A DNA stretch of 64,000 nt, taken from assembly GCA_973895155.1 (NCBI GenBank), contig OZ316892.1, positions 1,615,223 to 1,679,222 on the forward strand, in the 5' to 3' direction. Positions 1-54,424 of this stretch are shown here, piece by piece (position 1 is the first letter of the stretch; each line of letters starts with the position of its first letter). A program made the position numbers and the translations under genes. Under the pieces are notes generated by a model. The model was not told where the DNA came from and ran no database searches. It worked only from the letters and a program-made list of their open reading frames with translations. The DNA is from Marsupella aquatica (Eukaryota; Plantae; Marchantiophyta).

Positions 1-1095
1 ACTGCATCAGTTGCTCCTCCTTCCAGTGGCAAAGCAACCAGTGCCAACAAATTGCCTAAGCAACCACAGAAGCAACCCGCTCAGAAGGAGGCTCACAACG
101 CACAGGCAACTCAACTCCAGTCTCTGACTCATGAGGTTGAGTCATTACATGCCCAACTTGCCAACATCAAAGGCAAGTCTATTGCCTCTACTGGTCCTTC
201 TCAACCGGCTGGTCACGTGCAACCCATCCCTGGCCCAGGCACCACTGACAGTTCAGCACCCCTACCCCGCTCTTTCTATGGCTTGCCATTTGATGCTCAT
301 ATGGGTGAGTGTGTGCTGTCCTCTGCGACACAGCCTGGCCTTACAGCAGCATTTTCAGATTCATTCTGCCCTTCCTATTTTGCTTACCAGCAGGCCAGTG
401 CTGCCTCCCGTATTGCTCCCACACGCCGCATTGTACAAGCTGATGGTCTTGCTGCTGGTCCTATGACTAGAGCCAAGTGAGCTCGGGCTGTCATGCCCCA
501 ATCTTTTCAGCCACTCACACTTGCTGAAGAGCGCACCTTGTTGGCGAGGGGGGAGGGAGCTGCAGCTACATCCATTCCACCACCAGGTGCTGCTGACATT
601 TCACAGGGAGTTGTTTTTCCTGAGCTGCTTGAGCATTTCACCTCCGGTATGGCACAAAGGATTCTTACCACTCCACTTTTCAGTTGCCATGATTTACAGC
701 TGGATGCTAGAGCTGTCATCAGAGCGCTAGAGGGCTCACTACATTCTTCATCAACCCCTGTGACACCGGTTTTGGAGGTCCAATCTCATGTTAATACTGG
801 ACCTTCTTCTTCTCCACTGCATGCTTCCACTGGTTTGGCTATCCCAGTACCGATTTCCAGTGGTAGAGATGACAGTATTGCTACAGATTGTGTGACCAGA
901 GCTACACTTGATTCTGGTCATGCTGCTCCATCTTTCCTGGCTATGCTATTGAGTGGGAAGACCATGGACACTAACTCCCTTCACAAGGTACCTCATCATT
1001 TGCCAAAAGTGGTGCCTAGTGACAGGACTTTAGTTTCCACCACCATTGCCATTGTTGACAACAGGAATTCAGCAGTCAAGTTGGAGGGTCACACT

Positions 1096-1420
1096 CATCA
1101 GGTGGTCATGCTAGACACAGGCGCTCAACCAGTAATCTTGGGCATTCAGTTTGCCAAGAAGATGGGATTGCTGACTGATCATTTATAGCAATCCAGGTGG
1201 CACATTCGGACTGCTAGTGGCACTGTGGAGGATGTGTTGGGTGAGAGTTCTACTTTACTCACTCTCACTTTTAATGGAGGTACAGATCAGGAACTGCATT
1301 TCCCAGTCAGATGTTTGGTTACCAATGCTACTACGTATGATGTGCTCATTGGCCAGGAGGCTTTGTTCCCACCAGGTTTTACCATTGACAACTGGCATGA
1401 GCATGCATACTATAGAGTTG
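1096..1420 (+). pseudogene. Retroelement aspartic protease domain, interrupted by an in-frame TAG
   Basis: VMLDTGAQPVILG (DTG catalytic motif, ~1105-1143), then IRTASG and YDVLIG after the stop at 1186-1188. Confidence 0.85.
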
Positions 1421-1770
1421 ATTGGCATACGGATGGCTCACACTTGGGATACATTCCACTTGATTTGCATGGTGCCCATACCCCTATGGCTCACCACTGT
1501 GTGTTGAAAGTAGTGCACATAGCTACCTATGTCAACCACCCATTGCAGGATTGGATTGAGGATGAGGTGGCTACTGCACATGCTGCTGCACGTGTAGCAG
1601 CACTTTCCAGCAACGTGGATCATCAACCAGAGGTGGTACAACGGCTCCAAGCAGCCCATGGACCTTTGGTGGCTGCATTGCACAAATTTGAGGACCTTGG
1701 GCAGCATAATGGACAACCAATGCCCCCAATCTTGAGCGCACCAGTTACCTGGACTCCTCCTTCAGATGGC

Positions 1771-2715
1771 CTTACATTGCTTGAGCTTTTTGGTGGCATT
1801 TCTACAGGCCTGGAAGCTCTCCTAAAGTTTGGCATGGTGGTGAAGCAGTACATCTATGTGGATATTGATCCAAGTGCAAGGCAAGTGGCTGAATCCCGTC
1901 TGCTGGAATTTTCAGAGCGATTTCCTCAGCAGTTTCCACACAGTGCATGGAAGTCTGCATTTTCTTTCTTTCCTCCAGATATCCAGCTTGTCCAGCACCG
2001 CCACTTAACCCTTCTTGGCTCCCTTGATTTGATCATAGCTGGTTGGGAATGCCAAGGGTTTTTAGCTGCTGGTCACGGTGCTGGACTGCATGATTCTCGT
2101 TCTGGCCTTTTCACAGCATTGGTTCAGATTCTCACCTGGGCTCAATCCCTTTATCCTGCTATTGGTTATATCATTGAGAATACTCCATCTCAGTTTGACC
2201 AGCATCCACAGGTCAAAGAGGATTTCAGTGTGGTCCAGCACTACTTGGGACCACCCCTTCTCATTGATGCAGTGCACTGTGGTTCTTATGCACATCGTCT
2301 TCGTAACTTTTGGACTAACCTTGCACCACCTTCCTTGCTAGAGATGGCTCTTCACCACACATCCAGGGACACTAACCTTATAGTGGACCAGATTTTGGAT
2401 CCTGACAGTTCTTGCCAACCAGTTACACGGCAAGAGCCAGCACCTTGGTATCCAGCTAATACCATTGGACAACCCCGTGCTGCTTGGCCTACATTTGTGT
2501 CCTTTCCAGGTGCACATGCTTTTCAGGGTGATGGTCCTGGGCTGGTTTATCGACATTCTATCGGTACATGGGATGAACCTAGTCCTGAGGAGAGAGAACG
2601 GGCTATGGGCTTCCAACCCGGTACTACAGGTCACACCAAAATCACCAGGCTGGCCAGGAATGCTTTACTTGGCAGGGTAATGGATCTCAATGCTCTCACT
2701 TGGCTTCTGGTCACT
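1771..2715 (+). CDS. C5 cytosine DNA methyltransferase domain (Dnmt3/DRM-like) within Pol
   Basis: Motifs in canonical order: I LLELFGGIS (~1777), II YVDID, IV DLIIAGWECQGF (Cys ~2050), VI YIIENT (~2176), VIII AHRLRNFWTNL (~2296), IX ERERAMGFQPGTT, X RNALLGRVMD (~2656-2685). Confidence 0.9.
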
Positions 2716-3189
2716 TGCATCCTTTTTCAGATGTACATTCCTCCAACATTAGGAGCTCCAGCCCTACCCCTCCACAGTGCTGCTACATGGCATCCAGACC
2801 AGGTGCACTTACCTCTATTCAACACTCACCACTTCAGTCCAAGTGTTGGGGGGGAGGAGGTCCCTTGTAATGTGGCTGACATTATTTCTGAGTTTCATGG
2901 TGTGGATCAGACCAGAGCAACAGATACAGCAGGCCTTGGAGAGGCCTCATCACCTTATCAGCAGCATGCTAGCAGCTTGGACAGTGGAGAGGCTGGCACT
3001 TCTGGCTCTTCAAGCACGAGTACATCAGGTCCTATTCCTAGTGTTGCCAACTACACATTTATCATGGGCAACCACCTGAGTAAAAGACAGAAAGACCAGC
3101 TGCTGAATTTTCTCCTCAAGCATGAGAATGTGTTTGCTTTCTCTATGAAGGACTTGGGTAAGTGCAAGACTATGCAGTTCTCCATTGAG

Positions 3190-3830
3190 TTGGCTGATGA
3201 AACACCTATCTTTAGGCGGAGACACCGTTTGAGTAAGCATGAGTGGCAGCTGGTGGATGAGAGGTGCCAAGAGCTTTATGAAGCTGGTCTTATTCAGCCA
3301 TCTACATCAGATTTTGCGGCAGCTACAGTGATGCCAGCAAAGAAGGATTCCAGTGGATTGTGGACAGAGAAGCGCATGTGTGGGGACTACAGGCCATTGA
3401 ACCTGGTCACACCCCAGGACAGGTACCCCATGCCGTGGCCAGAGGAGCTATTTGACAGCATTGGAGACTCATACATCTTCACTCTTGTGGATCTAAGGCA
3501 AGGCTTCAACCAGATTTTGCTGCTTGCAAAGGATCGCAAGAAAACAACTTTCCATGGTAGTAACCAACTATGGGAGTGGTTGGTGATGCCATTTGGCTTG
3601 AAGAATGCGCCCATATTCTTTCAAAGAGTCATGGACCAGGTTCTGCAAGGTGCTGTGTTTCTGAAATGCTACATTGATGATGTGTTGGTCCACAGCAAAG
3701 GATTTGACCAGCATCTACTTGACCTTGAGGAGCTATTCATGAGGCTTAAGAAGGTGAACCTAAAGATACACCCCAAGAAGTGTGAATTTGCTGTCAGATC
3801 AGTAGTATATCTTGGGCATCGCATTCTTCC
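3190..3830 (+). CDS. Reverse transcriptase domain
   Basis: KRMCGDYRPLN, DRYPMP, VDLRQGFNQI, VMPFGLKNAP, YIDD (3670-3681), KIHPKKC, YLGH. Confidence 0.97.
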
Positions 3831-4089
3831 AAATGGAACCATGGCTCACTGGGCCAAGGTGGTATCCATCTTGGAAATGCCCACTCCTACCGATGTTCAC
3901 ACTTTGAGGAGTTTTATTGGGTTGTGCAATTACTACCGGATCTACATCAAAGATTTCAGTACCATTGCACACCCATTGTATTCTTTGTTGAAAAAGAATG
4001 TGACTTGGACATGGAGTACAGATGCTGAGGCAGCATTTGCCACTTTGAAGGAGAAGCTCTCAGAATACCCGGTGCTGAGAAGACCTGAT

Positions 4090-4470
4090 TTCAACAAGGT
4101 CTTTGTGCTACACACAGATTGGAGTGCCCTTGGGATTGGTGCCATTCTGGGCCAGCATGATGAGGAAGGTAAAGAGTATGTCATTGCCTATGCATCTAGG
4201 AGCAACAATCAGGCAGAGAGTCATTATTCTTCTTATGAGGGTGAATGCCTTGCTGTTGTGTGGGCTGTCATACATTACAGGCCCTACCTCTATGGGACCA
4301 GGTTTGTTCTCTACACCGACCACCAGCCCTTGAAGTGGTTGATGACCAACGACAAGCTTACTGGCAAGCTTGCTCGTTGGGCACTCATACTCCAGGAGTA
4401 TGATTTTGAGGTAATTCATAGGCCTGGTGTGACACATCAAAATGCTGACACTATGTCCCGCAGCCCTTTG
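4090..4470 (+). CDS. RNase H domain (Ty3 type)
   Basis: FVLHTDWSALGIGAILGQ, VIAYASR, YSSYEGECLAVVWA, YTDHQPL, HRPGVTHQNADTMSR. Confidence 0.95.
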
Positions 4471-4779
4471 ATTGCCTCTGATGATCCCTCAGATGCACGG
4501 CAGGATTTTGACCAGGTTTCCATCCTGCCTACATTTCATGCATCTACCTATCTTGCTTTGCTGCCATGCTACATTGTTGACCAACCTGTGGTGGACATAT
4601 GGGAGGACAGCGACACTCTGAGATTTCTGCAGGATGGGGAGTACCCCACCCATGTTACTGCTGCCCAGAGAGACCGAATTCAGCAAAGGTCCAAGCGCTA
4701 CTTGTGGAAAGGAGATCATCTTGTGCGCTGCTTGTCAGACAGGGAAATGGTGGTTCCACCCATTCATGAGAGGGTTGGC

Positions 4780-5800
4780 CTTATCCGTAAGGTACATTCT
4801 GAGCTTGGTCATTTTGGTGTTAAGAGGACTTATAGCCTCTTGGTCCCCCATTATCATTGGAGAGGCATGCATGGCCAGGTTCGAGATGTTATTGCCCGGT
4901 GTGAGCAGTGTGATAGGGTAAGGACTTCTTTCACATCTCGGCAACCCACACTTCATCCACTCCCTATTCAGGGCATGTTTTATCGTTGGTCATGTGATTT
5001 GGCTGGAGAATTACCCCTCACATCTCGGGGTAATCTCTACATCATGATCATGATAGAGCATTTCTCCAAGTGGATAGAACTTGTGGCATTGCCGGATAAG
5101 ACCTCCCGTAGCACCAGCCAGGCATTCTTGCAACAAGTTCTCAGCCGCTTTGGAGCTTGTGCAGAATGTCTCACTGACCAGGGCTCAGAGTTTAGAGGAG
5201 AGTTCCAGGAGCTGCTTGATCAGGCTCTCATTGATCATCGCCGGACATCACGAGATCACCCACAGGCAGATGGCTTGGCAGAGCGCATGGTTCAGACATG
5301 CAAGAAGGGCCTTCGGAAGATCTGCCTCACCAAAAACAAGGAGGATTGGGACCTGGCCTTACCCTACATTGCCATGGGGTATAGGATGTCCAGACATGCA
5401 TCACTGTCTAACTTTTCTCCCTACTTCTTGTTGTTTGGTCGTCACCCAGTTCCACCTTCTACTATTGCTTCTCACATGCTTCAGGTGGTGGACTTGGATT
5501 CAGCTGTGACTTGGTCTGATGTGATCTCTGAGAGGGCTGCCCTATTCAGGAGGGTTATGCCCATGGCCATGGAGAATTTGGCCATTGCACAGCATAGGGA
5601 CACACTGCGTTATGCACACACACGAGGGGGCACTTTTCAGCCCAAGGTCAGGAAGTTTGAAGTGGGAGATTTTGTGTACTTGCAGCGGCAAGCTAACGAC
5701 ACCCTGGACACCTCTACCAGTCGTACTATTCTCAGGGTTAAAGCTATTCGACCGTCTGGAGTGCTAGAGTTACAAGGGGCAGATGGGCGCACAATTGCTG
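4780..5800 (+). CDS. Integrase (HHCC zinc finger, DDE core, C-terminal region)
   Basis: HSELGH...CEQC; WSCDLAG, LTDQGSEF, HPQADGLAERMVQ; SPYFLLFGR; FEVGDFVYL. Confidence 0.95.
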
Positions 5801-5889
5801 ACAATGCCAAGAATTGCGCCCCTTGTCATCTGCCTAACCTAGATCCCACCATTGTGACTTCTACTTGGATTCCACCTGTGGACTACCCT

Positions 5890-6041
5890 TGCAAGGTGTG
5901 TTTGCGAATTGATGATGCTGACCAGATGCTGCTGTGTGACAATTGCATGGAGGGTACCATCTTTTCTGCCTTCGGCCTGAACTTACCCAGGTGCTAGAAG
6001 GGTTATGGTTTTGCCCTTCTTGTGCTCCACGTGCTACCTGA
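5890..6041 (+). pseudogene. C-terminal PHD finger of Pol, split by a 1-bp frameshift
   Basis: CKVCLRIDDADQMLLCDNC in the pol frame, then in the shifted frame GGYHLFCLRPELTQVLEGLWFCPSCAPRAT*. Together these give the C4HC3 pattern with the conserved W before the last CxxC. Confidence 0.88.
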
Positions 6042-6617
6042 ATTTTCTTCAGCCCTCCTTTTGGCTGTGGTCTGGGGGGGATACAGAGGTTTACACCTCC
6101 ACTACGTACATACCACTTCATTTGCTTTTTCTTGGCACTTGTGAATGTGATTGGACTTTTTCTATGCATGTTGGTTGCTAGCAGCTTGCACATATGCCTT
6201 GCCGGTGACTTGTATGTTTTCGATACACTATGGCTACGATACTATATGTCACGACAGGGCAGCTGTGGTTTAAAGGCCTGAGAGATGGTCCAGCAATATG
6301 CAACCTAAAGTCATCAGTGTTTGACTGCACTGCTCTCGTTGTTGCCCAGCAATTTGCAACCGAAAAACCTCTGTTGATTATGCCTCAGTATGATCCTATC
6401 TAGTATGAACCCTTTCATTTTGTCTGTGCATTAAAGAAGAGGGCTACCGATGCACTTATGGAATAAATTCAGAAAGGAGGCTAGCCTGGGCACAACAGGA
6501 GACTGAACGCGCCAATAATTGGGTTGCAACACCACAGAAGACACTGTTGTTTATGCAAAGGATGTCTTATCATGAGAGCTTCTATGGCCATGATCGATTA
6601 ACAGGTTCAATCAAATC

Positions 6618-6750
6618 AATTATGTGAACAGTATCTGTGAATCTGGATGCAGTAGAATTCAACATCGCAAAAACCATAAGTGCAATTCTATGAATTATGT
6701 GAACACTATCTGTGAATCTGGATGTGGTGGAATTCTACATCACGAAAACA
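6618..6750. repeat. ~75-bp imperfect direct repeat (2 copies)
   Basis: aattatgtgaaca-tatctgtgaatctggatg...gaattc-acatc occurs at ~6618 and ~6694. Confidence 0.8.
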
Positions 6751-6972
6751 AAACAAATACTTAGGGGTCCACGAACTTATTAAATTTTCCTGGCGCCGGA
6801 AATGCCATATGTGAAGAGATATTTGGCGAGCAGGGCAGGGGCGAGTGACCAACTTCAGTTGGGATAGAGCAGGTTGGATAAAGATTTTTTGAGGAAAATC
6901 CACACCCTAGGATGCAAACATGTGGCATGATTTGAGCCATCAGATGCTTATGAGTTAAGTGGTAAACTTAAA

Positions 6973-7260
6973 CATTGCTAGAAAAAGGTGACATTCTAGT
7001 CAAAAATAAAATAAAATCAGGACAAGGTATCAATTTCAGACAAAAAAGTGGCAAATAGTAAATTTGAGAAGCTAGAAATCAGAAAAGTCTTAAAGCATTA
7101 AGAACGTGTTAACTTAGCCATTGCTAGAAAAAGGTGACATTCTAGTCAAAATTTTTAAAAATCATGACAAGGTATTAATTTCACACAAAATAGTGGCCAA
7201 TAGTAAATCTCAGGAGCTAGAAATCAGAAAAGTCTTTAAGGCATTAAGAACGTGTTCAAC
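6973..7260. repeat. ~146-bp tandem duplication
   Basis: cattgctagaaaaaggtgacattctagtcaaaa...gcattaagaacgtgtt occurs at ~6973 and ~7119. Confidence 0.9.
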
Positions 7261-7811: not shown

Positions 7812-8453
7812 ATGGCAACAACAACCATGCAATCGTTAGTGGGTCTCTCATCCCGCTCTGGAATCGCTGGTATTCCCTGCCAATTCTCCAGCAGGGCGGT
7901 CAGGACGCAGAGAAGAAATTTGGGGGGAGGGGGAGTTGCAGCGAACATCAGGGCGCAAGCTGCAGCAGAGGAAGGAGAAGCATCATCATCGGCAGCAGCA
8001 GCGACAGAAGCAGGGACAGAAGTTGGAGGAGATGGAGATGGGGATGACTTTGAAGCTAGGCTAGCAAGGCTTCAAAGGAAGGTCACCAGTGGAACAGGGA
8101 AGAAGGCCGAGGCAAGGAAAGCGAGGAAAGAAGCGGGGGGAGATCCGTATTCTGCAACAACTGCAGCAAAGCCTAAGAAGGATGACATGTTCATTCCACC
8201 GGTGCCCCTCAAGGAGCCTGTTTCGGACGGATTGACTGTCGAGTTGGGGATGACGCCCTACACGGAGAGGTTGAATGGCAGACTAGCAGCTCTGGGACTT
8301 GCAGCGGTGCTGCTCGTAGAGCTTGCCACTGGAGACAGCTTCATCAAGTTTCATGACACCGGAACCCTCACCGTGCAGGTATATACCGTTCTTGGGTTGG
8401 CTGCCCTCTTCGTCAAGTATGAGAAAGAGAAGATTAGCATCTGGCCCAAGTAG
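7812..8453 (+). CDS. LHC-like / stress-enhanced protein (SEP family, SEP4-like), chloroplast-targeted, single exon
   Basis: Ser/Thr/Arg-rich transit peptide (MATTTMQSLVGLSSRS), chlorophyll-binding helix TPYTERLNGRLAALGLAAVLLVELATG, and a second hydrophobic helix. Confidence 0.8.
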   Translation: MATTTMQSLVGLSSRSGIAGIPCQFSSRAVRTQRRNLGGGGVAANIRAQAAAEEGEASSSAAAATEAGTEVGGDGDGDDFEARLARLQRKVTSGTGKKAEARKARKEAGGDPYSATTAAKPKKDDMFIPPVPLKEPVSDGLTVELGMTPYTERLNGRLAALGLAAVLLVELATGDSFIKFHDTGTLTVQVYTVLGLAALFVKYEKEKISIWPK

Positions 8454-22989: not shown

Positions 22990-23432
22990 CACAAAAGATG
23001 TTGAGGCAAGAAAAGATGTCGATGTGAGGAAAAGATATTGAGGTGAAAAAAGCAAGGAAAAAGATGTCAATGAGAAAAAAATATCGAGGTGAGAAAAAGA
23101 AGTCGAGGTGAGAAAAATTGTTGAGGAGAAAAGATGACGAGGTGACAAAGAGATGTAAAGATGAAGGAAAGATCTCAAGGAGAGAAAAAATGTAAAGGGT
23201 GAGGAACAGACCTGAAGGTGAGAAAAAGATGGCAAGATTAGAAAAAAATAAGTGCTGAGGCAAGGAAAAGATGTCAAGCCAGGCGAGAAAAGATCTCAAG
23301 GAAAGAAAAGATGTCAAGAATGAGAAAAAATGTTGTGGTGAGAGAGATGTCAATGTAAGAAAAATATAAAGGCAACATAAAGATGTTGAGAAGAAATGAA
23401 TATGTAAAGACTAGAAAAAATGTCAAGGCAAG
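22990..23432. repeat. Degenerate purine-rich ~20-bp minisatellite
   Basis: Recurrent gaggtgagaaaaagatgtc-like units. Confidence 0.8.
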
Positions 23433-23994
23433 GCAAACAAATATGCTTTGCAATGTAGTGGTGAGAGATGTTATGTGTGATCTTGAATGACTATATACTT
23501 GTTGTGGTCGTGTTCAATAACCCATGCGTTGCACATAAAAATTAGAGACCCGAGATAGTGGCCACCACATCATAAAGTTTAATTATGATTTTATGAAGCA
23601 GTTGTGGGCAGGCTAAAGGGCAAGCATTTATTCTAAATGTGGTTCATGGATAAATCTAATGAAAATCCAAAAAAATTAATTTAGATGAATGATCAAGATT
23701 GGTTCCCACTTTTCCATGAGTTTGTTTTGGCCTCCAATAATTACGTTTTAGCATTTTGAAAAAAAATTACTTAAGTTCACGTCCATTAAAAAATATATTC
23801 TTCACATTTTCATACACCCATTTTTGTTTATTTCATATTCCTAATTTTATATCTATTTCCTTTTAAATACATAGTCTTTTAACATGTAATGATTGAGCAC
23901 CTCTATTATATATAAACATGTGTACCAAAAAGTTTTGGTGTACTTAATTCTAATTAGTCCCCCTTAGGTATCCCTCATAATTATTACCACCTAC

Positions 23995-24214
23995 TACCCT
24001 AAGGTTCTATTTGCTTTGGTGGACACTTAGTTCTAGCTGATCAAAGGCTAGAATTAAACCTAACATAAATGGTCAGGCTGTGTTCCCACCAAATTTGAGT
24101 TTGTACCCTAAGGTCCTATTTGCTTTGGTGGACACTTAGTTCTAGCTGATCAAAGGCTAGAATTAAACCTAACATAAATGGTCAGGCTTTGTTCCCACCA
24201 AATTTGAGTTTGTA
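23995..24214. repeat. ~110-bp near-perfect tandem duplication
   Basis: taccctaagg...tttgctttggtggacacttag...aaatttgagtttg occurs twice in tandem. Confidence 0.92.
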
Positions 24215-25881: not shown

Positions 25882-26514
25882 TTATAGCTCATCCATCCGG
25901 ATATCCTTGTCAAGATTAAAAAAAACGCCATACTCCTCTTCTGCCAACGTAATGGCTTCGCTCACAAAAGCAGTGGTCACAACCGGCGGTTTTCCAGGAG
26001 CATGGCGATTGAAGATAGGTTTCCCAACTTGCAGAAACCATTGATCAGCTCCACCAGGGGCATATGTGAGAACCATTTGAGCAGGTTTGTCAGATTTATT
26101 GATGAACGAATGAGGTACCAACCTAGGCAAGTGCACAAAGCATCCCTTTGTTGCACGGAACGATCGGCTTCCAACAGTCCAGACCATCTCGCCATCGAGC
26201 ATGTACCAAGTCTCTTCCTCCCGAGTATGCATGTGCATTGGTGGACCGGCCCCTGGAGGTACAATGTCCTCAAATAGAGCATAAGTTCCTCCTGTTTCGT
26301 TTGACATGGCCTTCAAGGTGACCATAACTCCTAAGACCCACACACTGATTCCCCCACCTGCAATCCAAGTCGAACCATCATAATAAGGGCGGAAGTTATT
26401 CAAACCTTTGTCCCCGGATCGACCTTTGGAGCAGATCATTCCTAGTAAGGCATTGTTTTTTGCAAAAATTGTCACAAAGATTATCGAAGCAAAATGAAGT
26501 GATAGAATTAGCAT
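25882..26514 (-). CDS. Cupin-domain protein (quercetin dioxygenase-like monocupin) with a hydrophobic N-terminus; intronless ORF
   Basis: Motif 1 PPGAGPPMHMHTREEETWYMLDG and motif 2 GCFVHLPRLVPHSFIN, giving H-H-E-H metal ligands. Confidence 0.85.
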   Translation of the reverse strand: MLILSLHFASIIFVTIFAKNNALLGMICSKGRSGDKGLNNFRPYYDGSTWIAGGGISVWVLGVMVTLKAMSNETGGTYALFEDIVPPGAGPPMHMHTREEETWYMLDGEMVWTVGSRSFRATKGCFVHLPRLVPHSFINKSDKPAQMVLTYAPGGADQWFLQVGKPIFNRHAPGKPPVVTTAFVSEAITLAEEEYGVFFNLDKDIRMDEL

Positions 26515-28730
26515 GTACCTGGACCAATCATGGTCGTATCTCGTAAAGTATTAGAAGTGAACACCTCGTGACTGTACGATACCTGATCCATGGCTGCTCT
26601 GCTTGTGTGTATCCCAACACCAAGGGTCCAAGTTAGATCTTTATTCGCAAGCTTAAGAGATAGGTTTCGTTTCTATGGAAAGCAACTGCGGACTAACGCC
26701 AATGCGGATGTTCTGGAATCCGCTTTCGTATGCACAACCGATCTTCCCGATCCTTTCACTTATTTCAGCTTCCAAGTAGAAGATTAAACTCATCCTGACA
26801 TTTTTGTCCAGTAGATTCAAGGGAAGTAGAAGCAACAGCATACTTTAAAGGTGAATCCTATCCAACTTGATCTTCAAGCATTCTCAATTGAATACGTTCT
26901 GTATATTCAAATATTGCTGGATAAAAGTGTTGGTTCTATCAACACAAGGTTTACCAGAACATCCCAAAAGAGTCTGGTCCCCCCTTTGAAAACTCGACCC
27001 TGTTAAAACTAGTTCAGAATCGAGATCTGCCCTAGGGGACTTCAGCTTTGAAGTATAAGGATGGCTCACGTCCGTAACATCAAGCTTTCGGGTCTCAAAA
27101 GTTGCTTCAAAACACAACAGAAGGTTGAACAAGCAAAACACACAGCGCGTTCATCATCTGGCGTTTCACTAGCCATCGTCGCACCAGAGAGAAGAGCGAT
27201 GGGAGTATGAGAAGAGGATTGGACAAAATCCCCAACGTAAAGAAAAACTGCTGATTAGAGACATTAAGGCTCATCGGGCAGCGAGAGACAGAGAATCCTA
27301 ATTACAGTGAGCAGAGAGTACTGCATCAACCAAACTGACAGAAACCTGACCTGACTGATGAATTATCTATCTCACAAAGAGTAAAATAATGGGAAAATCT
27401 TCTGGAGATGGCACACCCAGAGTAAAGGAGATAAAATAGCAGATGATTAGGAGTCAAAGAGACACAGAACGACCGAAATCCAGGGAGCAAACAGAGACAG
27501 GCTACCTTATCAAATAGTGGAAAGAGAGAAATAATTGAAGAATTTCACAACCAAAACAGTGAATAAGGACAAAAAGCATATGGGGAATGAACGGAGGCAT
27601 ATTGACTGAGTTCAAGCAAAAACAGAGAACCAGAACGCCCGAAACTCAGGAAGCAAACAAAGACAAAGAATGACTACAACACAAATCGCAAACAATGACA
27701 ACATGACTGGACCGTCGAACTAAAACAATGCCTCAATCTCAAATTCAAGATGTGCGTAAATGAGAAAAGCCTCGTTAGAAGCCAGACATGGAATTAACGG
27801 AGACAAACTGACTGAAATCTCGGGAGTTAAGCAGACACAGAACTGCTGAGAATCAGGTGGCACACACTGAATGAACCTTTCCCCAGCAATGACAGAGTGA
27901 GTGGATCTAGGAGCATCAATTGCCACAAATGAGCCACAACAAGCACGAAATCAAAGAGCGAAAAGAACACAGACCGAATGACACGTTGTCAGCGAGCTAA
28001 GACATGAAGCACGAGTGAACCTCGGGGTCCCTGACCTGGCGAAACAAGTGAGAGAGAGAATGGCTTAAGCATTCTCGACAGGAAGTGGAGAAAGAACGAA
28101 CCGCAGAGGAAGTGGAGAGGAAGGAGCAGGAGAGCGGAAGGAGATGCAGCTCAGATTACTTACTCAAATCTTCTTCACAATTTGGATTCTCACCCTTCTT
28201 CTTCTTCTTCTTCCTTGCTCACTGCGGTCAGTCACGACGGTAGAGAGTCCCCAGACTTCCCCTCCACATGCAAAACAGTCGTTGCTTCTCGTCGATTCAT
28301 TTCGCATTTGGGTCAATGATCTAACCTGAACTTTCGCTTCGTAAGTTGTCGTCAATTCGTTTCGCATTGGGTTGCTTCAACTGAACGGACGCGTTCTCCG
28401 TACTCTGCGTTTCTTTTCCGTCCTAAAACGTGTGCTCTTCACAACTGCGAATATACCTCTTCCATGTGTGCGATGCCTGCTTATAGTATTGACATTGGGA
28501 CGGTGCGTAGAAAGAGAAAACTAGGAAAAGAAGATTTGATTGAATAAATGATCTGTCCAATCCAGAAAAATATATTTAATCTGAACAGTTTTCGGCCTTT
28601 CGTGGTACTTTAAAACTTTATTGGCAATTTGATCTACAGCCAATATTGAGTTAAAACGTAAACTTGGCCGCGAACTCTCCTACTGAAAGATTTTATTGGA
28701 TGCTGAGCCAGCTGTGCAAGGCAATTGGAA

Positions 28731-46177: not shown

Positions 46178-49100
46178 TCAGATAAGCATGTAGCCGCTAT
46201 AATTGAACCATACAGTCGAAAACCCAAGAATATCAATCAGTCCCATCTTACGTGAGGAGTTGGCTTTAAAGTCGACATCTGAAGCCCAATTCCAAGACCA
46301 AGCAAGCCTAGGCAAATTATAAGATGATACCAAAAAGACCAATGGAACTCCCGTCAACAAATGTAATACAACTTTGGATTTTTGGTGTTGATCAAGATAC
46401 CTATCTGGTGCTGGACCATCCCCTTGTATAAATTCCATCTTCATGAGAAGTTCATAAACCTTGTCTGTTTTAATGGGATCGACCTTGAACATCCCATAAG
46501 CATCTGATCTTCTGACCTGCCCTTTCCTCGTGCTTTCATACATGAGAACCTCCTTCATTTTGAGGTAATGGCTGGGTAGCAGCCTACATTGCTGGCAAAG
46601 CTCCTGCTCCTGCAAAGACGACGGCTTCGTTGTTCAGGATACATCACAGTCCTCCAGATAAGGATTTTCCTCGCACGCTTCCAGTTTTCTATCACAACAG
46701 GATCAAGAAAGGGCCTTGCAGCTGTTTGTGACAACTCTCAATGGTGGAAATAGGCTGCAAGCGGTTTGTGTCCATTTCAACCTGACCAAAGATTTTGCAA
46801 TACTGTGGAATAGAGAATTGAGACTGAATGCACTTACTGCAAGAGACAGCATTTCCATTCCAGGATACCCTGTGAGGTCAGGAAGGACCGCAGATTTCTT
46901 TACAACTTTGACAGTTCCACTCGAATACGAGTGATGGCCACTGCTCCGAGGTTTCTGACTGCTCCTCACATCTCCAGAAGGACTGGGCTCTCCATCACCC
47001 GTTTCCCTCTTCATGTATCGGTTTGATCGATGTGTCACTTTTCCACCCTGAAAGAAAGTTGTACTGTCTCTTGCTTTTTTTATGGTTACCTCAGTGTCTT
47101 TTTTCTTCTTCTCTGAGCAATAAAGTTCTCCCTCTGCCAACAAGCGGCATCCTGCTGACCTCATCTCCTGGACATTCAGCAATGTCCAGACTGAATCAAT
47201 ATCAATCGCGCATCGGAATTTCAACACTCCTGAAACCTTCACAACAATCAATCATTATTCTAAGGGGTTTCTGTCCAAAGTTAGACTTCAAACCTGTAGT
47301 TCCTCGATTCTCTGTCGGATTCTCCGCTCTGAATTCAGACCATTCAAGAGGGCTTCATGGTCCTCATTGGAATGATATCGCATAAATATCCGAGCTCGTT
47401 GGTAAAGGTCTCTCTCTTCCTTAGTCCTCTTTCTATCCAGTGCTGCTTGCTTCTTTAGATCGATAAGTCCCCTTTCAATGACAAAGTCTTTCCTTCGCTT
47501 TCTTTCATCAAGCCTACAATGACAGCCACAAGTATAAATATACGCAAACTCGTGTCGTGGACTGAATTCGGCCAAGGTCAACATCATCCATCTGAACAAT
47601 AAAACCTTTGCACGCTCTACTTAAACTGGCCACCAGAAAGCCACAATACCAAAATTCAAGAAAACCGTCATCAGATAGCAGTTCTTACCTTGCTAAATAA
47701 ATGTGCAATATTCGTAGTTTCAACTCACGATCTGTCTCGGTATCATTATCTTTGAACTCCATATCAGCCAACTGAAGCTCTGCGTCATTGTCATACTCTG
47801 GGTCAAACTCTTGCCTATTGGCATTATATCCTGTTTGTTCTGCAGTAGCAGCTCCCGCCTTACCCTCCTCAGCCAACGGTTTGGGTTTCTTCCCACCGAG
47901 GCTGCGATTACTTTGTCCTTCTGCGTAAGTCCGAAACAAGATGGGGAATCAGGACTAAGAACACAATAACCCTGGTTAGTCAATTTCCAATGAATTGCAA
48001 GTAGACCAATTTTGCTAGGATAATGTTTACGATCTGCCCAAAAGTCCCACGGATTGACTATTAATCCTTAAAGCAGCAGTCATAAAAGCTATGAACTTGC
48101 ACATCAGCTAGTTTGAGGTCCACCTTCAGCATTGGCCGTGCCTTGGCTATCAAGGCTCTCTTTTGATTGTCCACCTACAGCGGTCTTCTTTGCTGAAGTT
48201 AAGGGGACACCAGAACTTCCTTCTCCCTGATCTCCTTCGAGTTTTCCATCTTTGCTCCCTAATACGACATCCAATAAGTTCTCAGGTCTAACAGTTTTAC
48301 AGTGATACAGCATAAACAACCAAATAATTACAACCAAATTGTGTCGGATTTGCAGTGAATTACTTTGAATGACCTCAGTCATGCAGATAACAAAGCCCAC
48401 TGAGGTCAATTGACAAGACCCTATAACCTAGATCTCATTCAGACAGCAGACAGCAAGCACACTTCCCCAAAACACGGCAATGGAGGACTACTTATTCCTA
48501 GAAAACTAGAAAGAGGCCAATAAAACCAACTCAACAGTCCTACACAATGACTTTTGAAGCGCTTGCTAATAAGAGGCTGAACAATTCTAAGCAATGGATA
48601 AGTAACACGTGTCACAAAAACCATAACTTTTAAGATCATCATCGGCGCACACAGATTAACTTTCAGCCGTAGAAACAAACCTATTAGGCCTGATGGTGAC
48701 CTTCCTGATGGTGACTCCTTAATTTCCTCAATTCTTCAGTTTCAAAGATTGACAACAAACGAGTAGTAAGCAAACAACAAACCGCCTTGCACAAATCAGT
48801 CACCAGAACTTAACAGAAGCAGCAATCAAATGAAGAAATAAATAAATCAATAAAACGGGATGTAGAAGCTGAAGTACATTTGAGAATACCAGTGACAAAA
48901 GTTACAAACTGGACAAGAACATGATAAAAATATGTTGTAATGCACTAGAATATTTTGGACGACTTGATCCTACAAACCTTGTAAATGTACAAAACAATCA
49001 GCCTTAGACTGTTCAAGACAATAAAAGACTAGACGTTACTTTAATCAACACGTGCAACGGGGACACAAACTCGATGACTTGAATGGATAGGACTGGCTAG

Positions 49101-51868
49101 CCCACACTGTATGATTCATCAGATCAGAGACGATGAATGCGCACTTGAAATGAACAGATCACAACTGTTTCCTGGCACAGCAGCTACTCTGAGATAAGAG
49201 CACATGACAAAAAGGTAGACATCGTACTTGATTCTGGCAGGAGAGATCGTGGGTTCTTGTTTAACAAGACGTAAAGAATCCATCCCAACCGATAAATCTG
49301 CGCAATGGTAAAGCAATCCAGCAGTAATATTGATTTAGCAAAGAATTACCAAAGATTCCTTCCATTGGCATGTAACATAGACAGATTAAAGTCACCACTT
49401 CTGAACCTCTTATGGGTTTTTGAAAAGGGTCCACACACCGTGTACGAATTCAGTTCTAGAAAAGTACTCATTATACAACTCATACTTTCAAAAGATTCCA
49501 CGTTGCAAGATACAAACGTACTTTTCTTTCCATCTGCTTGTAACTTGGCAAAAGCCAAAAGATCTGCTCGCGATTTCCCCATGACTTGTCTCATATCCTG
49601 GCATTGTATCAGTCGTTAGCAGTTACCAAAGTCAATTATCATCAACAAAACACAGATTCCCCAATCCTTTGAAGCAGTTCTCGCACATACACTCAACAAG
49701 AGAGGGATTACTAAATCTGGAACAAGATACTGTCTTTTCAGTGAAAACAAGGCCCTAACAAAATGTCATTATGGGAATCAAATCATAATGACATTTCATA
49801 AATAGGCACACTCCAGCCTTTAATAGGACTTTTTGAACAAAATTAACTATTTTCAGAACTAGATGCTTAATTTTGAAGTTGCACAAACACCAATAAGAAG
49901 TGAAGGTCATTACTGGCAGAGGAGAAAAAGGGGAATTCATGTATGCTGTCATGTAATGCTCGTAACACTGGGCTTTAGTCTTCGTCCCCACATGTTCTCC
50001 AACATCTCCCCAGTTGCCCACGCCACACATCTCAACTGCCTGCATTATCGATGTAATCTCAACCCTTGAAAAACCGAGTAAGGGACAGTGCTTCAACCAA
50101 CAGGCGTAAGGATAGAGCAGACAGTTAAACGGGCAAGCAAGTAGCACCAGATCATAAGTTCTAATACCCGCTGGGTGAAAAACAAACCTCAAGTAACAGG
50201 ATCTCCTCATCCGCATTCCAGTCTGGATGGATGAGAGGAAAAGCCAAGTTATCCTGTAACACAATCAAGGAAGGGAGTTGTGTCAAGTGTTTGAATCAGC
50301 AACTACTTATATCGGAGAGAGTAAATCCTTTGATGTACGCATCAGTAATTTAAACTAAAGGAGCCATCATGAAGCAAACATGAGCAGTGAGTGCTTGCCA
50401 CAAGTAATAAAAACCTTTGAAGCTTACCATGACCCTGTAAGGATGATTGCATTTGTGAGGATAGGTCTCTGCGCCAACGGAAAAACATTCCACGCAAAGG
50501 TCATAATCGGTGCATTTCGCACACTTGATGCGAATTGTTCCTGATATGTCCTTGTGGCAATAATTGCAATGATACAAAGGAGGCCTCTTTCCATCTCCTG
50601 CAATCACACAAGTAGTTGTCAGAAAACAAACCGAAACTCAAATAAAAATTTACCACCTCGGCCAAATCGTTGGTTCCTCGGAAGCAATTGCAGAAAATAT
50701 GGAAATAAACAAAATAAACGTATTTCAGAAATCCCCTTCCAGGATTTTCTTAGGATATGATTTTATATTATGATATGATGATATGATGCAGATGCCACAG
50801 ACAGCGCAGATAAGCCGACGGGTAGTTTATGCAAAGCCTTCAAGACATTCAGCCAGTCTTACCGGTTGCTCCTGAGTCCAAACTGTCGACACCCAGGACA
50901 ATCCGTCGGCGCTTCGATCTGCAGCGACAGTTGCGGTGGTCAAGAGCGTATGCATGGATTGGAATACAATCATGTAACTTCAAATTGCTTGCTCACAATT
51001 CCCGCATTGCATCTATTGTGATTGGAATTGCCGAGACTGATCGGACTTTTCGTTTAAAACTTCATCGTAGAAAGGGGGCCACCAGTTCAACTCGTATTCC
51101 CCTTAATTATGCTTCACCCCGAGGAATACGAGGCGATCCGATAAGATGGACTCACCACCCACCCAAGAAACAAAAAAAAGAGGTAACTTCTAGTAAATTC
51201 AGTTGGATACCGGGACATCATGACGTTCGGAACAAAAACATCAGCGCATTCCGGTCCTACATTGTCAGCCACCGTGTCTCAACTTGAATGTATACATTGC
51301 AGTAAGAAGCATCACACATCGTCTTCAGTCAGTCACGAGCAACAATTCTTCGCAATGCAGCTGTGAAACAAAGTGCCATAAGACCAATGCACCACCGCAC
51401 TAAGCACAAATTCAGCTGCAAATGCGCCTTCGCTAAATCAACCACAGTCCAGACCACTCGGGACACAGTGCCCATCAATTTCCCCCCAAAATTGTGCCCA
51501 AATTTCAAAATTCCGCAACCAGACTGCCCGCTTTTCGGTACAGTAGTATAGCACGCTCTCCACAGAAGCAATCTTTCCCCGTACCCCTCTCCCTGGCCTC
51601 AATCACGACGAAATTCCAAGCCCCCCGCCCTGCGACCCCGCACGTCGAAATCAAATATTTAACGAGGAAATTGTCCGAATTACGCGAAACCCTAAACAGC
51701 AATTTCGAACGTTAATTTCAGACCCTCCTGACCACGCGAGAGCGCTTTTTCAATGGGAAAATTTCGTATCTCCCGACGCGCCCCGAGTTTGCGCACGTAC
51801 CGGTGACCGAACCACGCCCCGTCGTCGTCTGCGGCAGCAGCAGCAAGCGGACCTCTGGATCGCCCCAT
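46178..51868 (-). CDS. ADA2: Transcriptional adaptor ADA2 (SAGA subunit; ZZ finger, SANT, SWIRM)
   Basis: Exon 1 MGRSRG (ATG 51868); ZZ YHCNYCHKDISGTIRIKCAKCTDYDLCVECF; SANT GVGNWGDVGEHVGTKTKAQCYEHY; GYNANRQEFDPEYDNDAE; SWIRM EQELCQQCRLLPSHYLKMK. The exact 3' end is uncertain because splicing may occur at ~46400. Confidence 0.93.
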
Positions 51869-52102: not shown

Positions 52103-53257
52103 ACTCAATCAATACACTTCCTACAGCTACAACAGTGGTTAGGCAATACTCAATACACTTCCTGGTGTAGTTAGGTGATTGTAAGAGTAGTCATTGTGTA
52201 AGTTACATGTATCCACACTAGTGTAGTCAATTGTGTAAGTTACATGTATCCACACTAATGTAGTCAGTCAATATGCTTCCCTATAGTAGTCAGGCAAATG
52301 TATTGTGTAAGTTATATCCACACTGGTGTAGTCACTCAATACACTTCCTGGTGTAGTTGGGTGATTGTAAGAGCAGTCAGTGTGTAAGTTACATGTATCC
52401 ACACTAGTGTAGTCAATCAATATGCGCCCTATAGTAGTCAGGCAAATGTAAGAGCAGTTGTTGTGTCAGTTATATCCACACTGGTGTAGTCACTCGATAC
52501 ACTTCCCGGTGTAGTTGGGTGATTGTAAGAGCAGTCAGTGTGTAAGTTACATGTATCCACACTAGTGTAGTCAGGCAAGTGTAAGAGCAGTTGTTGTGTA
52601 AGTTATATCCACACTGGTGTAGTCTCTCAATACACTTCTGACAATAATTAGGCAATTGTAAGAGCAATCGTTGTGTAAGATACATCCACACTGTCTAGTG
52701 TAGTCACCCAGTACACTTCCTACCCTAGGTAGGCAGTCATTGTGTAAGTTACATCCACACTATTGTAGTCACTAGGTACAATGCACTTCCTACCCTAGTT
52801 AGGCAATTGTTTGTATAAGTCACATCCACACTAGTGTAATCACTCAATACGCTTCCTACAGTAGTCAGGCAAGTGTAAGAGCGGTTGTTGTGTAAGTTAC
52901 ATCCACACTAGTGTAGTCAATACACTTCCAACAATAGTTAGGCAATTGTAAGAGCACTAGTTGTGTAAGATACATCCACCCTAGTGTAGTCACTTAGTAC
53001 ACTTCCTACCCTAGGTAGACAATTGTTTGTGTAAGTTACATCCACACTAGTGTAGTCACTCAAGACACTTCCAAGAGTAGTACATTAAGCAATTGTAAGA
53101 GTTGTGTAAGATACATCCACACTATTGTAGTCACTCAGTACACTTCCTACATAGATCATAGGCAATTGTTTTTGTAAGTTACATTACACTAGTGTAGTCA
53201 CTCAGTACACTTCCTACAATAGTTAGGCAATTGTAAGAGGAGTGATTGTGTAAGTTA
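52103..53257. repeat. Degenerate tandem array, ~70-80-bp unit, about 15 copies
   Basis: Recurrent tgtgtaagttacatccacactagtgtagtcactcaatacacttcc...aggcaattgtaagag. Confidence 0.95.
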
Positions 53258-53596
53258 TGCATAGACGACATTCGCAACGGCAAGCCCATGAACCATCCAA
53301 CGCACAAGAGTCGACACAGAGAGATACGTGATTCACCTCCACATGAAGCTACGTCCACGGGAACACACTAAAGTTTTATTGCACTCTAGGCCGACAGGCC
53401 ATACCAAGCATCCACAGCACAAGCTCTCCCTATCTCTCAACTAGCTCCGTAACAATGAGCCTAAGTTCCACCAAGGTCTGGCATCAGCCCTGGCTATATG
53501 CACAACAGCACTACCGCTAACATTAGCTAAGTCCTAACCCGAGTTAGACTAACTGTGGTTAGCTCATGAGTCACAAGACTAGAGCAATATCTAACA
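53258..53596 (-). mobile_element. Solo LTR (339 bp)
   Basis: TG...CA termini, 5-bp TSD agtta (53253-53257 and 53597-53601), minus-strand start TGTTAG and AATAAA (~53375). A related uninterrupted unit lies at ~53695-53730. Confidence 0.8.
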
Positions 53597-54424
53597 AGTT
53601 AATGTAATCAATCTTCTTCTTCTTGAAATGGGAAGCATGTTTTTGAGATGGCACCATTTGTTATAGCAATAAGGCAATTGTAAGAGGAGTCATTGTGTAA
53701 GTTACTATAATCAATCTTATTCTTCTTGAAAGGTGATCCATTTTATTTGAGTCGCCACCCCGGCAAAGACCAGTGGAGCACAACGCAAAACAAATCTAGG
53801 GCAAGGTCACCCTGACAGACTGCAAGGTCTCCGTGTAAAAGACTTGTGTCAAGAGTGGATCATAATCAACCACTTAAGAACAAGCATGTTATGAGTCCAA
53901 TAACTAATCTTGAGACAAGGGCAACAATAGTCCCCTCACTCCAAATTGGTAGAGTACAAGATGTGTAATCAATCTTCTTCCCTCAACTCATTCCCTATTC
54001 TCTGTAATGCAGAGGGGTTTTGTATTAGGGCCTCTATTCCTCTCCGTGACCCCATTATGTGACCCTATTATGCAACTTACCCCATAGCTCTACCAAACTT
54101 TAATTTCTGTTTGATGCTCAAAACGACAATAGTTTCTTAGCCCTTGTTGGGGACTTTTGGACTTTTGGACTTCTTGGCTCATTTTTTTGTGGGTCTTTAG
54201 TATTCCTCTCTTTTTCCTTCTATTCTCCCCTTTAGTGGGTCTGCCTTTAGGATCCTGTCTCTAGGTTTCGCCCTATTTGTTCTTTGACGGTTTGAAATAA
54301 ATCAAATCTTTCTCTTTGTTACTCTTCCAGATGACACTATTTGTCCTTCCAACTGGCCCTCTTTCCCTGTCGCCTGCCTTGGGTACTGTGGTTGAGCTCT
54401 TGACTGTGTGTTACTGCATAATGT

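Follow-up and report, generated by a model that had tools for sequence, protein, structure and literature searches.

Why a transposon should keep an enzyme of the kind that silences transposons has been a question since 2018, and one reason that it persists is that its known hosts are difficult experimental subjects. In that year a Dnmt3 domain was described within the Pol of a Gypsy element of the alga Klebsormidium nitens, KnitGypsy-Dnmt3, and self-methylation was proposed (PMC5890265). The same question is raised by a 64,000-nt stretch of contig OZ316892.1 of the liverwort Marsupella aquatica (hereafter, the window), near the start of which a retrotransposon carries a methyltransferase-like insert. 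Here, we consider what the insert is, whether it belongs to the element, how far it extends among plants and what it may do.

The element and its methyltransferase domain

By its predicted order of protease, reverse transcriptase (RT), RNase H and integrase, the window element is a Ty3/Gypsy LTR retrotransposon; all of its features are on the forward strand. The 3′ part of gag and the gag-protease linker occupy 1..1080 in frame +1 pieces, with the element's 5′ end beyond the window, and compared by eye this region tracks the open Gag-protease-methyltransferase protein P0123 from about residue 350. An aspartic protease (1081..1400; DTG at 1114-1122) is matched on its first half by gag-asp_proteas (E 0.0044) and is whole in the relative P0007 (E 2.9e-7). 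It is followed by the methyltransferase domain (1771..2715), RT with a YIDD motif (3364..3825; RVT_1, E 3.1e-26), RNase H (4087..4401; RT_RNaseH, E 5.4e-38) and an integrase with H2C2 zinc finger and catalytic core (4759..5262; Integrase_H2C2, E 1.4e-13; rve, E 3.7e-13). Pol ends in a PHD finger (5890..6024), absent from the original prediction, with its first half in frame +1 and its second half in another frame. The PHD finger stands in place of a chromodomain, and a domain search of the window element matched neither a chromodomain nor Dam. Frame +1 is open from 1189 to 5997 (1602 codons, stop to stop); in it lie, between the second half of the protease and the first half of the PHD finger, the insert of 315 codons, RT, RNase H and integrase. 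The insert had been proposed to be part of Pol, and it does share its frame with RT, RNase H and integrase. The protease said to precede it is only partly in this frame, its DTG site standing ahead of the stop at 1186-1188.

Behind Pol lie a G run that is a putative polypurine tract (6073..6080) and a putative short 3′ terminal repeat (6081..6256), at whose limits loose contig ends with mixed flanks occur (8 contigs at 6081 and 10 at 6256); contig depth drops beyond 6300. No second copy of the putative repeat was found within the window, and no direct repeats of at least 14 nt linked to the element were found in 5800-7000, the 5′ end being outside the window. Folding of the 3′ end is no better than that of shuffled sequences (z −1.1). 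A G run and then CTACGTA also occur behind Pol of L018, a relative discussed below: window positions 6042-6100 and L018 positions 6905-6975 have in common a hairpin-like stretch, the G run, CTACGTA some 20 bases later and, farther down, CACGACAG. This common pattern is a putative conserved 3′ signal.

The window copy is dead and cannot yield an intact polyprotein: premature stops interrupt it at 478-480 and, within the protease, at 1186-1188, and the PHD finger is split by a frameshift near 5946. Two public read sets (X1 and X2), in which contig depth was compared with the window copy, indicate what other copies carry. The stop at 478-480 is absent in 64034/64288 of the depth in X1 and 66942/66942 in X2, that at 1186-1188 in 24087/26780 and 88702/89050, respectively, and other copies are one base longer near 5946 in 12058/14567 and 47033/73192; across the read sets, 90-100% of depth lacks the stops and 64-83% lacks the frameshift. 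Programmed readthrough at the 1186 stop, which is followed by CAA TCC, was rejected because the stop is missing in most copies. Between 1100 and 2250 the window copy deviates from most others at 21 (X1) or 27 (X2) sites, about half of them of C-to-T type; the copy-specific C-to-T type changes fall in CHH (8), CHG (7) and CG (2) contexts, and these 17 are too few to weigh. One near-invariant catalytic-loop position (2062..2064) has a copy-specific residue that occurs in the window alone among 119 domains, and other copies differ there.

Methyltransferase motifs I, II, IV, VI, VIII, IX and X had been read in canonical order, which is borne out by the sequence and by an alignment of 119 domains: motif I is at 1783-1797, IV at 2041-2055 (GWECQ, with the catalytic Cys at 2050-2052), VI at 2176-2181 (EN), VIII at 2296-2304 (R-x-R), IX from 2590 and X at 2668-2688. 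The suggested search with PF00145 gave a weak match (E 0.0013, 18.7 bits) that falls under the 22-bit gathering cut-off; four of four relatives with a match pass the cut-off (28.5-45.9 bits), and two further domain bearers have no match. The single window domain sequence matches DNMT3A (E 3e-7), and a profile of 33 family sequences matches DNMT3A at E 8e-25, DRM at 2.5e-11 and M.HhaI at 4e-9. Marine phage methylases (L038-L040, of Pelagibacter, Croceibacter and Vibrio phages) also match the domain at 27-29% identity, with E down to 8e-11. An AlphaFold2 model of the domain (pLDDT 93.4) matches DNMT3A in Foldseek (E 5e-18), and a structure comparison gave Z 28.4 for DNMT3B and 27.7 for DNMT3A (rmsd 2.7 and 2.4; 278 and 266 residues aligned), with lower scores for M.MpeI (Z 24.3) and DNMT1 (Z 18.4). 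DNMT3A/B is the top match in both structure searches, and the fold is nearer DNMT3 than DNMT2. The domain is thus a predicted Dnmt3-like C5 cytosine methyltransferase, non-permuted unlike DRM, as the profile E-values and Z-scores agree; the prospect that it would lack any C5-methyltransferase profile or structure match is countered by DNMT3A/B on both grounds.

The catalytic Cys of motif IV, Glu-Asn of VI and Arg-x-Arg of VIII are all present in the window copy. Among 119 near-full domains, the Cys is conserved in 117 and Glu-Asn in all 119; the two motif VIII Arg residues are kept in 115 and 111. Textbook motif IV contains PC. Motif IV was correctly located in the window element, but it reads EC rather than PC: the residue before the catalytic Cys is Glu in 76/119 domains, the window's included, and Pro in 41/119, with both states scattered across the methyltransferase tree. 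The Glu codon has no majority difference among other copies in X1 or X2.

The alternative that the domain exists in this copy only and evolves neutrally is at odds with its multi-copy depth and its dN/dS. Depth over 1801-2700 is 26013-53470 (X1) and 46879-150291 (X2), and that of a neighbouring host gene is about 80-165; these values are depth, not copy number. Depth in the tens of thousands extends across 1-6300, methyltransferase included, at hundreds of times the flank, so the domain is not a one-off capture. Its dN/dS is 0.105 against L001 (75% identical), a value from one pair only, in which dS approaches saturation (1.79) and L001 too is broken; two linkers compared in the same way have 0.24 and 0.29. 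The domain pN/pS is 0.24 (95% bootstrap 0.19-0.30) over 314 codons for the same pair. By these ratios the domain is under purifying selection. In trees of 36 elements, 12 of the 16 RT splits with support of at least 0.9 recur in the methyltransferase tree, which argues that the domain travelled with the element; the correlation between the two trees is modest (Mantel rho 0.29, p 0.004). No protein with protease and RT that lacks the methyltransferase was found among the collected relatives, a sample partly drawn by methyltransferase queries.

Elsewhere in the window, a host gene with a weak chlorophyll a/b-binding match (E 0.038) lies 1.5 kb beyond the element (7812-8453, forward strand). The reverse strand has a Cupin_2 frame of about 220 codons with no evident intron in an intron-rich region (25882-26550; E 1e-17) and exons of an ADA2b-like gene with Myb and Ada2b C-terminal matches (46178-50264). 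Repeats comprise a purine-rich degenerate array of 19-nt units together with a tandem pair of 109 nt (22991-23436 and 23995-24212) and a degenerate array of 66-81-nt units in about 13 copies (52117-53704).

Relatives in the green lineage

With E up to 1e-30, the family profile found 540 clusters (50% identity). The best 150 of them included 117 new ones, 79 of which have a neighbouring protease, RT, RNase H or integrase. A relative in Calypogeia fissa has 68% identity over 82% of the domain; other named domain relatives are from Sphagnum, Marchantia polymorpha, Closterium, Haematococcus, Chromochloris and Monoraphidium, and a Coleochaete transcriptome has an RT-integrase-PHD protein of the same lineage. 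No Klebsormidium names are among the domain relatives listed. Gene models of M. polymorpha with the domain include Mp4g09160, Mp8g17980, Mp5g06330 and MpVg00370. Many Marchantia models annotated as hypothetical proteins, several of them on the V chromosome, are pieces of a methyltransferase-Gypsy element. A diverged domain relative, P0210, has RNase_H (PF00075) and no Gypsy domains were found in it; it possibly represents another element class.

Three layouts occur, and in all of them the domain is in a Gag/Pol frame. In the window family and Closterium, protease, methyltransferase and RT share a single frame. In L018 and several Marchantia and Calypogeia models, a Gag-protease-methyltransferase frame ends about 100 residues past motif X and RT is separate. 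The third layout, with named members from chlorophytes, is RT-RNase H-methyltransferase-integrase-PHD. Among 293 methyltransferase-bearing proteins, 51 have RNase H before the domain and integrase after it, and 21 have protease before and RT after. The RNase H-methyltransferase-integrase group nests inside elements with the methyltransferase before RT in two trees with weak deep support, which suggests that this layout arose by one later move of the domain; rooting alters the picture. With midpoint rooting, streptophyte and chlorophyte domains are split (supports 0.99 and 0.93), whereas with phage rooting the window branch groups with chlorophyte domains (0.998). The RT tree, for which 118 of 151 sequences were kept and 33 animal outgroup rows dropped, unites all methyltransferase/PHD elements with support of 0.86. 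Trees were built with FastTree from sequences that did not include host DNMT3.

Beyond plants, 15 distant methylase loci were found in viral contigs, with no match as long as the element. Matches in GTDB comprise 17 loci, of which only L018 (9285 nt) and L019 (10362 nt) are elements: near-complete eukaryote-type retrotransposons in bacterial genome bins. No further elements were found in the two genomes that carry them and no tRNA genes in either element, and both are likely eukaryotic contaminants of the bins. The RT protein of L018 is filed under a cyanobacterium in NCBI and UniRef.

L018 is a circular 9.2-kb contig from a cyanobacterial bin and contains a whole element. Its Gag-protease-methyltransferase frame ends at 3489-3497 in TAG CAA TCA, after which RT-integrase-PHD continues in frame. 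CAR YYA after UAG is described, in the text available, as the tobacco mosaic virus (TMV) readthrough signal, and this context has a probability of 0.0012 by composition in L018. The nine sister proteins shown all end at the stop position; of 15 listed downstream proteins, 8 begin no more than a codon from it. The stop would thus be a TMV-type leaky stop, as predicted from the DNA of one element; the window family has no stop there. If readthrough occurs, production of the methyltransferase would match that of Gag, with RT at a fraction of it, which would suit action on the particle's cargo.

The PHD finger split in the window copy is whole in P0219, the closest RT relative (PF00628, E 4.7e-11). 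The intact PHD finger of L018 best matches those of CHD4, PHF12, KMT2D, UHRF1, KDM5 (PHD1) and PHF21A, which are mostly readers of unmodified H3 tails. PHD fingers that read K4me3 have Trp two positions before the His; 75 of 90 family PHD fingers have Gly there. Animal DNMT3 is joined to H3K4me0-type reading through its ADD domain, and by analogy the element would combine an enzyme of Dnmt3 type with a reader of H3K4me0 type.

Possible roles of the enzyme

On balance, we lean towards a role in methylation of the element's own new DNA. The methyltransferase would be packed into the particle as part of Gag/Pol, freed by the element protease and would methylate new cDNA, probably at CG; the PHD-bearing integrase would then likely insert the pre-methylated copy in silent chromatin without H3K4 methylation. 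A new copy would thereby resemble an old, silenced repeat, and the likely gain is that it would be spared de novo host defences or that its harm would be damped. Packaging and protease release are drawn from standard Ty3/Gypsy biology, and we infer the activity, its substrate, the CG preference and the PHD ligand. This role is consistent with the retained catalytic residues and DNMT3 fold and with the place of the domain within the Gag/Pol frame in all three layouts. Two domains of SymbioDIRS-Dnmt3, an element of Symbiodinium, methylate CG de novo in yeast, but no methyltransferase activity on yeast DNA was seen for KnitGypsy-Dnmt3, which its authors regard as inconclusive (PMC5890265). The motif IV Pro is missing in the window family and in 76/119 domains, selection was measured on one broken and nearly saturated pair, the correlation between trees is modest, and the readthrough motif is in the DNA of one element outside the window family. 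CG at codon junctions is observed 11 times against 107 expected, with CAG/CTG not depleted, as methylation at CG would predict. This depletion was nevertheless rejected as proof of self-methylation because it is non-specific: CG o/e is 0.82 in L018 and 0.66 in L019, both of which carry the domain, and drops to 0.34-0.35 in three 4-kb stretches elsewhere in the window, a loss nearly as great as that of the element. CG loss is not tied to the domain, so host MET1 can explain it.

It is unlikely, in our judgement, that the enzyme instead acts after integration, arriving with the integrase complex and methylating the insertion and its flanks in Dnmt3-like fashion through an H3K4me0 reader. The PHD type is consistent with such action, the chlorophyte layout puts the domain directly before integrase (51/293 proteins), and moss DNMT3b acts de novo in heterochromatin according to the available text. 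Streptophyte layouts, however, have the domain at a distance from integrase, and L018-type elements make it in a separate frame product.

Also improbable is retention of the domain for binding rather than methyl transfer, by which it would flip or hold CG and so steer integration or shield cDNA from self-integration. The change of motif IV Pro to Glu in 76/119 domains and the inactivity of the Klebsormidium domain in yeast (PMC5890265) would suit this explanation, as would the preference of the moss Phygy lineage, of similar size (7.7-10 kb), for NCGN targets (PMC6317226). Against it, conservation extends to the SAM-binding motifs (I, II and X) as well as to the catalytic Cys, Glu and Arg, the 4 nt that follow the putative element end at 6256 do not fit NCGN, and the Phygy link is a lead from description.

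We give still less credence to the idea that the enzyme restrains its own element, by acting on promoter CGs of new copies or on element RNA, so that milder elements survive with their hosts. Such restraint has been proposed for these elements (PMC5890265), and the CG content of the window family is very low; yet the family is abundant, and the fold is nearer DNMT3 than DNMT2. One-off host gene capture, nested insertion or misassembly, for which the weak Pfam score and a few contigs in which parts of the domain are missing (1621-2398, for example, at a depth of about 50) could be cited, can practically be dismissed given the depth, the placement in frame and without introns, the recurrence of this layout in 21 proteins, E < 3e-78 for the best 150 of 540 clusters at 50% identity, purifying selection and the lack of DUF3444, unlike host plant DNMT3.

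Known elements and significance

A Dnmt3 domain in Gypsy Pol and the idea of self-methylation have been in print since 2018; what is new is the green-lineage range, the pairing with PHD, the readthrough layout and the copies in Marchantia. KnitGypsy-Dnmt3 and the window element both have a non-permuted Dnmt3-like domain in a Gypsy frame with RT and RNase H, and purifying selection is reported for the former (Ka/Ks < 0.2; 0.105 for the window domain, from one pair). The capture of KnitGypsy-Dnmt3 was placed in the K. nitens lineage, whereas relatives of the window domain occur in liverworts, Sphagnum, Zygnematophyceae and chlorophytes; its available text describes no PHD finger, EC loop or leaky stop. 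It also has DIRS-like split repeats (A, coding, B-A-B), of which none was found in 5800-7000 of the window, the 5′ end being outside (PMC5890265). By comparison with the published text, the window element would share ancestry with the Klebsormidium clade. SymbioDIRS-Dnmt3 likewise has a Dnmt3 domain in Pol, in two domain orders, but is of the DIRS class with a tyrosine recombinase, a separate capture in a dinoflagellate host (PMC5890265). EpiLTRs of Cymbomonas and Euglena are LTR elements that also combine a methyltransferase with a histone reader; they have a DNMT4-related domain, Dam and a chromodomain, whereas the window element has a Dnmt3-like domain and PHD (bioRxiv 10.64898/2026.05.21.726589). 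The available text of that report mentions "streptophytes (Gypsy-DNMT3)"; later papers that refer to streptophyte elements, this one among them, name no land plants in the text available.

Among bryophyte elements, Phygy of Physcomitrium patens is a non-chromovirus Gypsy lineage outside OTA, 8.6 kb long and mostly coding, with a 4-bp NCGN target duplication and a tRNA-Trp primer site (PMC6317226). It resembles the window element as a bryophyte Gypsy without a chromodomain and with room for an extra kilobase, but its accessible description lists no extra domain (PMC6317226); compared by description only, the window lineage may be Phygy. Bryophyte host DNMT3 enzymes (PpDNMT3a/b, MpDNMT3b) share the non-permuted Dnmt3-type catalytic domain and carry DUF3444, whereas the window domain is intronless and in Pol, and a domain search of the window element found no DUF3444 (PMC6453930; bioRxiv 10.1101/2021.02.12.428880). 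No report of a land-plant methyltransferase-Gypsy element was found in the literature searched, outside which subscription journals lie, and supplements or figures may list members. Bryophyte chromatin papers, Marchantia included, deal in their available text with host enzymes only, and the accessible parts of PMC11244446, PMC7466625, PMC11982613 and bioRxiv 10.1101/2021.11.30.470311 contain nothing on such elements.

The wider picture can be drawn tentatively, with more doubt than confidence. One ancient green-plant Gypsy lineage, possibly predating the chlorophyte/streptophyte split and possibly the same as Phygy, may have rebuilt the Dnmt3 logic with an active, particle-loaded methyltransferase (at Gag level where the stop is leaky) that methylates cDNA, its catalytic loop being an unusual Glu-Cys type in most branches, and with a PHD finger on the integrase that reads unmethylated H3 tails. 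Its many bryophyte copies, including those of Marchantia, could then be an overlooked source of de novo methylation. The range of the relatives puts the capture well before the Klebsormidium lineage, and EC loops put the constancy of the textbook PC motif to the test. M. polymorpha carries the domain and has methylation mutants, which makes it a tractable host in which to ask why a transposon keeps such an enzyme.
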